From a virus (Duplodnaviria; Caudoviricetes), in IMG/VR virus record IMGVR_UViG_3300020047_013271, positions 4,476 through 68,475 of that record: a stretch of 64,000 nt of DNA. One strand, written 5' to 3'. Below, one piece after another: positions 46,844 to 48,159 of the stretch. The notes beneath the pieces were generated by a model. The model made no database searches. It was not told where the DNA came from and saw nothing but the letters and a program-made list of their open reading frames with translations. Numbering within the stretch: the stretch's first letter is position 1; each line of letters begins with the position of its first letter. The translations under genes and the position numbers were made by a program.

Positions 46844-47044
46844 TTATTTCTTATTAAATTGTGAAAATCCTTTTTGGTACGCCCGGTAAACAAAGCCCGG
46901 TTGCTTTACGAGTTTCTTCCATTCGCCGTAGAGCATCGATTTTAACCCCGAAAACTCCCCATCCTTATCAGTTTTAACCACATCTACTATTGTTCCCGTA
47001 GGAAGTAAATCAGGTATGTATTTTTTCTTGTCAGGTTGTGCCAA
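46844..47044 (-). CDS. hypothetical protein
   Basis: 66-aa ORF following the RNA cluster. Confidence 0.5.
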   Translation of the reverse strand: MAQPDKKKYIPDLLPTGTIVDVVKTDKDGEFSGLKSMLYGEWKKLVKQPGFVYRAYQKGFSQFNKK

Positions 47045-47157
47045 TTACTTTTTTTTAATATTATCTATTGATATAGAAACAAGCATTAACCCTAAAAAAA
47101 TAATACATGAGCATATAATATTTGTCATAATGTTTTTACTTTTAGTTTTTAAAATAA

Positions 47158-47420
47158 GGGGGATTGACGCTCCCCCAAGTTTCGTTTTAAGCAGCCAATC
47201 TCATTGGTTGGTTAAAAAGGTTGATAACTTTTGCAGTTATTTGTAAAAAAGTCCTCAGTAAAACTCGTGCATTGCTGTCAAAGCCATTCCTCCCCAAATC
47301 AGTCATTTGTACATCGGCTGACTAAACCATCAACACTTTACACGGCATCGATTTGTGGAGAGGCGGGGTTTCGAACCCCGGTCCAAACAAAAACTCATAA
47401 TACGTCAATGAACAATTTTG
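47158..47420 (-). ncRNA. ssrA: tmRNA gene, circularly permuted (two-piece) form
   Basis: Acceptor piece with GGAC-CGGGG-TTCGAAA-CCCCG-CCTCTCC-A lies upstream of the 5' piece GGGGAGG-AATGGCTTTGACAGC; G3:U70 pair; tag frame 47234-47187 encodes AKVINLFNQPMRLAA*. Confidence 0.88.
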
Positions 47421-47492
47421 TTGCTCCAAGTGGATTCGAACCACTGTTATCAGGATGAAAACCTGCCGTCCTAACCCCTAGACGATAGAGCT
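47421..47492 (-). tRNA. tRNA-Glu(TTC)
   Basis: GCAGG-TTTTCAT-CCTGA anticodon arm; AGTGG-TTCGAAT-CCACT T-arm; TCGTCTAGGGGTTAGGACG D-arm. Confidence 0.85.
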
Positions 47493-47650
47493 ATTTGCAA
47501 GTCTTTCCTTGCTGTCAGTTTGATTCTTTATTAAAACTCATCGCTATATTTACCTTTTTGCTTTTCTTGCCCTACGTCTTTCCGTATATTGTCAATAGCA
47601 CTCTATTGTTTTAACTCCAAATCAAACATCCTCGCTTTCTTTATTGGTTG

Positions 47651-47758
47651 TGGAGAAGAAAGGAATTGAACCTTTGGCCTACTGTCGAATTATCTATCTA
47701 CACTTACAAGTGATAATCAATAGTTTTGCAATCGCTCTAACCACTGAGCTACTTCCCC
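47651..47758 (-). ncRNA. tRNA-Ala-like RNA with the anticodon loop replaced by a ~44-nt insert
   Basis: GGGGAAG/CTTCTCC-A acceptor with G3:U70; canonical TAGCTCAGTGGTTAGAGC D-arm; AAAGG-TTCAATT-CCTTT T-arm. Confidence 0.7.
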
Positions 47759-47802
47759 TGACGGACCGGCTTTTTACAGAAACTCGTCCTCGAAACTGTT
47801 TG

Positions 47803-47920
47803 TAGTCAGGATAGGATTCGAACCTACATAAAGCAACCTTACAACTTCATAGTCAACACAAGTGTCTGCAACTATTAGTCTTGGGGACTTGGGTAGCCAT
47901 CCCGCATTACACACCTGACC
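47803..47920 (-). ncRNA. tRNA-like RNA with an oversized central region
   Basis: GGTCAGG/CCTGACT acceptor and GTAGG-TTCGAAT-CCTAT T-arm; 118 nt in total. Confidence 0.6.
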
Positions 47921-47925
47921 TTTTT

Positions 47926-48159
47926 TTATTCTAAAACCTCATACCCAGTTTCCCTCTGTAGTGACCGAATCTTCTCATTCAACTTTTCGTCATTACACCC
48001 TTTCTTATAAAGCTTTTTCCTTTCCGTGTATAAGAACTTTAAGCGAATCTCCGGACTCAATTCTACTTTCGCTTTCGCTTCTCTGAAACTCCCCGTTTCA
48101 AATCCGCCGCTTCCGTCAGGGTATATTGTATCGTTCATAGTTTTTAATTTCAGTTTCAC
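47926..48159 (-). CDS. hypothetical protein
   Basis: First ORF of the leftward transcript. Confidence 0.45.
   Translation of the reverse strand: MKLKLKTMNDTIYPDGSGGFETGSFREAKAKVELSPEIRLKFLYTERKKLYKKGCNDEKLNEKIRSLQRETGYEVLE

Follow-up and report, generated by a model that had tools for sequence, protein, structure and literature searches.

A circularly permuted tmRNA gene of Bacteroidota type in the genome of a tailed phage, with relatives in other phages

The minus strand of the window analysed here, a 64,000-nucleotide stretch corresponding to bases 4476-68475 of a 68,475-bp IMG/VR virus record, carries a phage-encoded circularly permuted tmRNA gene with a tag of its own. A phage two-piece tmRNA of permuted form had been claimed at this position in an initial annotation made from the letters of the sequence, and the claim is borne out by the agreement of ARAGORN, Rfam and covariation among 15 relatives. 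The gene is considered very probably (roughly 0.85) a functional phage ssrA in permuted form, belonging to a phage family most likely derived from the one-piece tmRNA gene of Bacteroidota and moving between phages in tRNA cassettes. It is real and of a known kind, as two-piece tmRNAs of phages have been published and relatives of the present gene are deposited in GenBank.

Detection of the gene was performed with the two tools that the initial annotation had named as the means of checking it, and both recovered it. ARAGORN predicted a permuted tmRNA (tmRNA*) in the window at 47096-47447 of the minus strand with the tag AKVINLFNQPMRLAA*, and the Rfam model RF04321 (tmRNA_permuted) matched 47187-47404 on the same strand over model positions 1-213 with 63.2 bits and an E-value of 7e-10, thereby passing its gathering score of 47 bits across the full length of the model; the result was identical when the whole phage record was searched. 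The standard one-piece model RF00023 gave no match in the window at its gathering threshold, the order of the halves being reversed in this gene. The alphaproteobacterial, betaproteobacterial and cyanobacterial permuted models (RF01849, RF01850 and RF01851) reached about 30 bits against cut-offs of 50-84 and aligned over the tRNA-like domain only. The betaproteobacterial model, for instance, gave the window gene 30 bits against a cut-off of 84, and the tmRNA of Maribacter phage Panino, one of the relatives, scored 30.2 bits against 70 with the cyanobacterial model and 29.9 against 50 with the alphaproteobacterial one.

With reference to the minus strand, the gene runs from an acceptor piece through a spacer to a coding piece, an order that is kept in all 15 relatives. 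Immediately upstream lies tRNA-Glu (UUC), called by ARAGORN as tRNA-Glu(ttc) at 47420-47492 and by the Rfam tRNA model with 50.2 bits. The acceptor piece that adjoins it (47356-47419) comprises a 5' tail with the motif AUUGACG (47409-47403), the 3' strand of helix 2a (47390-47384), the T arm (47380-47364), the 3' acceptor strand CCUCUCC (47363-47357) and the discriminator A47356, which is followed by CAA, so that CCA is not encoded. The intervening spacer of 60 nt (47296-47355) contains a 7-bp hairpin at 47325-47299. The coding piece (47150-47295) then opens with the 5' acceptor strand GGGGAGG (47295-47289), which pairs 7/7 with CCUCUCC, G3:U70 included, and continues with the 5' strand of helix 2a (within 47276-47271) and the resume-codon hairpin (47224-47240), a 6-bp stem AUAACU/AGUUAU with a 5-nt loop that was returned by RNAalifold from both 6 and 16 sequences. 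The resume codon GCA (47234-47232) opens this 5-nt loop, and the tag frame (47187-47234) consists of 15 codons and a UAA stop (47189-47187), giving the 15-residue tag AKVINLFNQPMRLAA with the C-terminus LAA. The piece closes with a G+C-rich hairpin of 6 bp and a 7-nt loop (47158-47176) and a T run; in the terminator scan, hairpin and T run together (47176-47150) were terminator-like. The base-by-base description in the initial annotation thus reads correctly throughout 46900-47700 of the minus strand, from the upstream tRNA-Glu, the acceptor pairing and the 60-nt spacer with its hairpin to the unencoded CCA, the resume codon and the tag, which is the same as the one returned by ARAGORN.

The outer limits of the two pieces are predicted from their neighbours. 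The acceptor piece would begin at about 47419, the base after tRNA-Glu, whose 3' processing probably sets this end, and the 3' boundary of the coding piece is placed at the terminator-like site; a tRNA gene or its 3' end abuts the 5' side of the tmRNA also in Panino and in the contigs L264, L269, L268 and L271. On these boundaries the mature RNA would total about 200 nt in two pieces. The predicted fold of the whole precursor is no more stable than that of shuffled sequence (z = -0.99), helix 2 becomes weak in the window sequence after the first 5-6 pairs, and no equivalent of a pseudoknot is evident in the window gene; in the model tmRNAs that have been studied, pseudoknot 1 is important. A sigma-70-type promoter scan of the cluster, whose scope does not extend to Bacteroidota-type promoters, identified no promoter, the sole site above shuffle expectation lying downstream of the tmRNA.

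Homologues were sought by DNA pattern scans and blastn, and 15 clear ones were obtained: Maribacter phage Panino (PP540027), Chryseobacterium phage MA9V-3 (PV245944), three metagenome contigs and ten IMG/VR contigs, the contigs being L269, L263, L267, L271, L264, L268, L270, L272, L266, L265, L118, L102 and L079. It was the looser patterns that succeeded; a combined acceptor-plus-coding pattern and a 5'-tail pattern had zero matches in IMG/VR, and blastn against cultured phages returned short T-arm matches only. The Panino gene is called permuted by ARAGORN and scores 63.9 bits with RF04321, and that of MA9V-3 scores 64.7 bits. An in-frame tag of 14-19 residues was reported by ARAGORN in 14 of the 15 relatives and was read by eye in L079. 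In most tags the first residue is small and KV(I/M) comes next, and the C-terminus is mostly Ala-Ala; the middles of the tags diverge, and the resume hairpin, the frame, the stop and the Ala-rich C-terminus are kept in 16/16 sequences. The tag of L269 is one residue away from that of the window, and its last three codons differ from the window's by synonymous changes only, together with a change of stop from UAA to UAG. The initial annotation had tied its claim to conservation of the tag frame and of the pairings in related phages; the frame and the acceptor pairing are conserved in the 15 relatives. Their carriers are diverse: the terminase of L271 is 69% identical to that of the window phage and that of L272 is 32% identical, the complete 70-kb phage of L267 has no related terminase, and L118 has a portal of another kind. 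Judged by these genes, the permuted family is spread over unrelated phage backbones.

An alignment of six sequences was used for the formal pair count and covariation test, and from it RNAalifold recovered the acceptor stem, the T arm, helix 2a and the resume hairpin. Within the six homologues, 94.7% of the cells of the named structure were paired, against 43-50% when the partners were slid by 1-3 columns, and the covariation score was 0.31 against 0.089 in shuffles, a value reached by 0 of 500 of them. Changes on both sides were found at seven pairs of this alignment; helix 2a was 100% paired in the 6 sequences, with 2 pairs altered on both sides. As two independent detectors agree and the covariation of the six homologues exceeds that of shuffles, the structure is more than a product of chance.

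The larger alignment of 16 sequences corroborates the same elements. The acceptor stem, read by eye, is paired 7/7 in 16/16 sequences with G3:U70 invariant, and two other pairs show compensatory changes, pair 5 being A-U, C-G, G-C, U-A or G-U and pair 6 G-C, C-G or U-A. This stem was counted by eye because RNAalifold missed it in the 16-sequence alignment, where five rows are one column off and the spacers between its distant strands are gappy. The T stem covaries strongly, pair 89/103 being AU in 6 sequences, GC in 5, UA in 4 and CG in 1. Each pair of the resume hairpin is formed by 14-16 of the 16 sequences in the RNAalifold result, and by eye MA9V-3 retains this hairpin with an altered closing pair. 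An outer helix was also considered, in which GUUC of the 5' tail would pair with G(A/G)AC ahead of the resume codon, as 5 of the 6 sequences would allow; it has 4 bp and competing partners and is not claimed.

A further contact, between the terminal hairpin and the 5' tail, had been proposed in the initial annotation, and it probably holds for some members of the family. The sequence CGUCAAU, in and beside the loop of the terminal hairpin, complements AUUGACG of the tail over 6-7 bp in the window, and the pairing recurs with new sequences in two relatives, L102 (8 bp) and L079 (7 bp), in which a different tail sequence at the same alignment position complements the terminal loop of its own gene. 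Elsewhere the match is weak or absent: by eye it amounts to 5 bp in L269 and L264, 5/6 in L268 and six A-U pairs in L266, and nothing convincing was seen in L118, L263, L271 and L265. By a hand estimate, three perfect matches of at least 7 among 15 sequences would occur by chance less than once per few hundred trials, and on account of this rarity the contact is judged likely to be genuine in some family members. A hairpin and T run comparable to those of the window are present in L118, L102, L079, MA9V-3 and L266.

Spacer length ranges across the family between 38 and about 190 nt and the sequence shows no conservation, which fits a segment that is excised. Its hairpin is shared by the window, L269, L263 and L271; among these four, 5 of the 7 stem pairs are changed on both sides and the 13-nt loop is conserved. 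The short motif CCGUGUA is also conserved in them, just upstream of the hairpin. The hairpin may be a processing signal, and in the closest relatives it may serve a separate function.

The origin of the gene can be approached through its tRNA-like domain. The T-arm pattern of the window, with 24 fixed bases over 34 nt, was found in 92 species genomes, all but two of them labelled Bacteroidota, and in more than 120 metagenome stretches, where most of the examined loci are one-piece genes with tags such as GENNYALAA; one-piece tmRNAs of other phages share it as well. When ARAGORN was applied to 60 of the species-genome loci with this pattern, 53 of the 53 tmRNAs called were one-piece with GENNYALAA-like tags, and seven loci were uncalled, in agreement with the earlier statement that Bacteroidota hosts typically have one-piece tmRNA with short tags. 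The 13-base motif UGGAUUUGACAGC that follows the 5' acceptor strand is common to the window and the Gillisia tmRNA, whereas the classical permuted consensus has UUCGACGG in its place, and the T loop is UUCGAAA in the window against UUCGAUU in that consensus. Both halves of the tRNA-like domain are therefore nearer to the Bacteroidota one-piece gene than to the alphaproteobacterial, betaproteobacterial or cyanobacterial consensus, for which reason, taking the gene as real, an independent permutation of a Bacteroidota-type one-piece gene appears quite probable from its sequence. The event likely took place in an ancestor common to many phages. Of the independent permutation in a phage suggested by the initial annotation, the independence is favoured by these signatures, but the permuted form is not private to the window phage.

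The two records with this T arm that are not labelled Bacteroidota are L187, a Kuenenia MAG contig, and L189, a Spirochaetaceae MAG contig. Mis-binning is likely for L187, whose one-piece tmRNA has a flavobacterial-type tag.

Alternatively, the gene could have descended by horizontal transfer from one of the classical permuted lineages of Alphaproteobacteria, Betaproteobacteria or cyanobacteria, or of their phages, and have been adapted later to the SmpB and AlaRS of Bacteroidota. Marine phages of SAR11, OM43 and cyanobacteria do carry two-piece tmRNAs and one cross-class case has been published (PMC9004378), RF04321 still gives 63 bits even though it was built solely from alphaproteobacterial, betaproteobacterial and cyanobacterial sequences, and a host-like tRNA-like domain could in part reflect convergence on host factors. 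We nevertheless regard such a transfer as unlikely, because the 34-nt T-arm pattern is confined to Bacteroidota among the 92 species genomes save for two MAG contigs, at least one of which has a Bacteroidota-type tag, because the 5' half and the T loop depart from the classical consensus as described, with the former resembling Gillisia, and because the three class-specific models remain far below their cut-offs. The one-piece tmRNAs of related phages, and the T-arm pattern shared by other phage one-piece genes, likewise speak for a source nearer at hand.

Beyond a permutation of the Bacteroidota gene as such, it is tentatively suggested, at a little under even odds, that the family constitutes a phage-restricted permuted lineage in which the pseudoknots of that gene were shed (about 200 nt), the resume codon came to be presented in a loop, a covarying contact between terminator loop and 5' tail is held in part of the members, and a spacer hairpin is conserved in the closest relatives.

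A second compact permuted family was encountered among IMG/VR contigs (L013-L016, L019, L021-L024, L026, L029, L039 and L044), with genes of about 290 nt, a spacer of about 20 nt, tags of the type GEQVEMAMAA, Bacteroidota-like motifs in the tRNA-like domain and a possible pseudoknot after the tag. One member, at L020:8241-8728 on the minus strand, has an insertion in its message, which by eye, from the usual resume position, stays open for 37 codons and ends in MAA; this long frame would make an unusually long tag. The frame chosen by ARAGORN is a different one and is doubtful. One-piece tmRNAs with long phage-style tags were found beside tRNA genes in many viral and metagenomic contigs, namely in L017, L027, L031, L035, L040, L041 and L045, and also in L028, L037, L042, L065, L099, L115 and L116. 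One-piece and permuted tmRNA genes both circulate in these phage populations.

The source record has direct terminal repeats and is rated 100% complete, and its portal, terminase and virion proteins are those of a tailed phage. In the cultured-phage collection the terminase matched only those of Flavobacterium, Cellulophaga, Tenacibaculum and Maribacter phages, at about 50% identity, which makes a flavobacterial host likely. The initial annotation had seen no smpB in the window, and no match to SmpB (PF01668) was obtained even across the complete 68,475-bp record. As the phage has neither smpB nor an encoded CCA, host factors would be needed for the RNA to work.

The tmRNA lies in an RNA-gene cassette of about 890 bp on the minus strand (47034-47924), together with tRNA-Glu and two tRNA-like genes, flanked by two small ORFs (47926-48159 and 46844-47044). 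The first tRNA-like gene (47651-47758, minus strand; Rfam tRNA 53.3 bits, no ARAGORN call) has an alanine-type acceptor with G3:U70 and A73 and normal D and T arms, with about 40 extra bases replacing the anticodon loop. The second, aberrant element (47803-47920, minus strand) scores 22.9 bits with the Rfam tRNA model, below the cut-off of 29, and combines a good acceptor stem and T arm with a stretch of about 80 nt that replaces the D and anticodon arms. In the closest relative found, L003, whose neighbouring exonuclease is 98% identical in protein, blastn homology is collinear on both sides, extending to 47925 and resuming at 47033 with only 7 bp between, and tRNA and tmRNA are both absent. 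The 7 bp that stand where the window has 47034-47924 mark the cassette as accessory, and with the entire cassette missing from the closest relative the tmRNA can be deemed dispensable for this type of phage. No tRNA or tmRNA was found in any of ten loci that share the neighbouring exonuclease gene.

From the layout of the cassette, a minus-strand transcript is predicted to run from the tRNA-like genes through tRNA-Glu into the tmRNA precursor and to end at the hairpin and T run (47176-47150). The two-piece tmRNA of Caulobacter, as cited in PMC9004378, provides the analogy for its processing: host tRNA-processing enzymes would cut the precursor, with RNase P acting 5' of G47295, and the acceptor piece would be trimmed to A47356 and receive CCA from the host CCA-adding enzyme, whereby the 60-nt spacer would be released. 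The resulting pieces, of about 64 and about 140 nt, would be held together by the 7-bp acceptor stem and helix 2, and in the window sequence probably also by the contact between terminal loop and 5' tail. Host AlaRS would then charge the RNA through G3:U70 and A73, and host SmpB and EF-Tu would bring it to ribosomes stalled on broken mRNAs, where translation would resume at GCA 47234 and add the 15-residue, LAA-ended tag that directs the product to host proteases. The benefit to the phage may lie in keeping ribosomes free as messages are degraded during infection.

A different possibility is that the RNA mainly sequesters host SmpB or AlaRS, serving as a decoy or inhibitor by which host trans-translation is shut down. 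A phage without smpB would be suited to this, a decoy role has been proposed for the gene of mycobacteriophage DS6A, which consists of a tRNA-like domain only (as cited in PMC4131195 and PMC11915505), and the cassette itself holds, at 47651-47758, the alanine-type tRNA-like gene that lacks a normal anticodon loop. A decoy, however, would need no message, and here the resume hairpin, frame, stop and Ala-rich C-terminus persist in every sequence as the tag middle diverges, with synonymous changes separating the window from L269; this reading is accordingly held to be improbable. Least credible of all, and in our estimation only a slight chance, is that the acceptor piece merely duplicates the host ssrA 3' end as an attP-type site for integration, with the coding piece fortuitous or a decaying relic. 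Integration into ssrA by phages that bring along its 3' end is frequent, and the Panino paper treats its tmRNA in this way (PMC11590407), but in all relatives the two acceptor strands, of which the 5' one lies downstream, covary with each other, the gene is located in tRNA arrays of many phages, and a complete message with its terminator is conserved.

The reading as a functional permuted phage ssrA can be placed among the known systems. The classical permuted tmRNAs of Alphaproteobacteria, some Betaproteobacteria and cyanobacteria (RF04321; RF01849, RF01850, RF01851), described in bacteria by Keiler 2000 and Sharkady & Williams 2004 as cited in PMC9004378 and PMC11915505, have the same piece order as the window gene, an acceptor stem formed between the pieces with G3:U70, a T arm and a tag ending in Ala-Ala. 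In contrast to them, the window gene has Bacteroidota-type signatures, a much shorter mature form (about 200 nt) without evident pseudoknots and a resume codon in a hairpin loop, and its family was found here only in phages. The standard tmRNA of Bacteroidota, present also in related phages, is one-piece: a single uninterrupted gene of 360-400 nt that contains the part in which others have pseudoknots. The host tags are of 9 residues and GENNYALAA type. The one-piece tmRNA of Gillisia limnaea (L195:5437-5834) has a T-arm pattern and UGGAUUUGACAGC identical to those of the window, with the encoded CCA incomplete or absent. Phages of the Calle_1/phi38:1 group, whose terminase is related to that of the window, carry one-piece tmRNA, as in Cellulophaga phage Calle_1 (L047:2183-2544; RF00023 86.6 bits).

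Two-piece tmRNAs have been published for the OM43 phage Melnitz, pelagimyophages, cyanophages and Caulobacter phages (PMC9004378). Like the window gene, they are marine, permuted, presumably reliant on host SmpB and often near tRNA genes; the Melnitz-type genes are of alphaproteobacterial type, some with a glutamine riboswitch, whereas the window gene is of Bacteroidota type, had no riboswitch match, and is carried by a podovirus-like, flavobacterial phage. A survey reported 53 unique ARAGORN-permuted genes in 18,146 phage genomes; phages of marine or aquatic origin account for 50 of these genes, with Cellulophaga phage phi4:1 tabulated as permuted (PMC9004378, Table S1). A 2025 tmRNA database holds 79 phage sequences and 48 permuted instances in Bacteroidota assemblies, the latter typed by best-scoring model only (PMC11915505).

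Nearest to the window gene are those of Panino, MA9V-3 and the 13 metagenomic relatives, which have the same motifs in the tRNA-like domain, resume hairpin, terminal hairpin and, in most, tag start and differ in tag middles, spacer length and flanking tRNAs. The GenBank labels of the Panino and MA9V-3 genes are plain "tmRNA", and the Panino paper is silent on the permuted form (PMC11590407). Among other Bacteroidota phages, the crAss-like gut phages cr114_1 (NC_055897) and cr50_1 (NC_055868) also have an ARAGORN-permuted tmRNA, with longer spacers and other tags than the window gene and from the gut rather than the sea; the T arm of cr114_1 is similar to the window's and its motif is GGAUUUGACAGCAA. 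Several crAss-like phages are already annotated with tmRNA. The permuted tmRNA of cr114_1 (L261:1164-1606) contains a complete tRNA-His gene (1265-1337) within its spacer; a tRNA inside the spacer has been termed a unique feature of one MAG sequence (PMC11915505).

The novelty that the initial annotation had attached to this clade is therefore reduced, the published survey, the database and the GenBank relatives having already catalogued it in part. A paper describing the Bacteroidota-type phage lineage as such was not found in a limited literature search, in which the genes appeared only as table entries. With such phage genes published and close relatives annotated, the find is sound but ordinary.

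Overall, we present a documented case that adds to the evidence of marine phages often carrying a ribosome-rescue RNA, and often in two pieces. The near-identical phage that lacks the cassette offers a natural control for the benefit of a phage tmRNA. At about 200 nt and without evident pseudoknots, the RNA represents a minimal tmRNA found in nature and could reveal which of its parts are required for trans-translation. If it was derived from the gene of the host phylum, permutation of tmRNA would be a recurrent event and not a matter of three old accidents.
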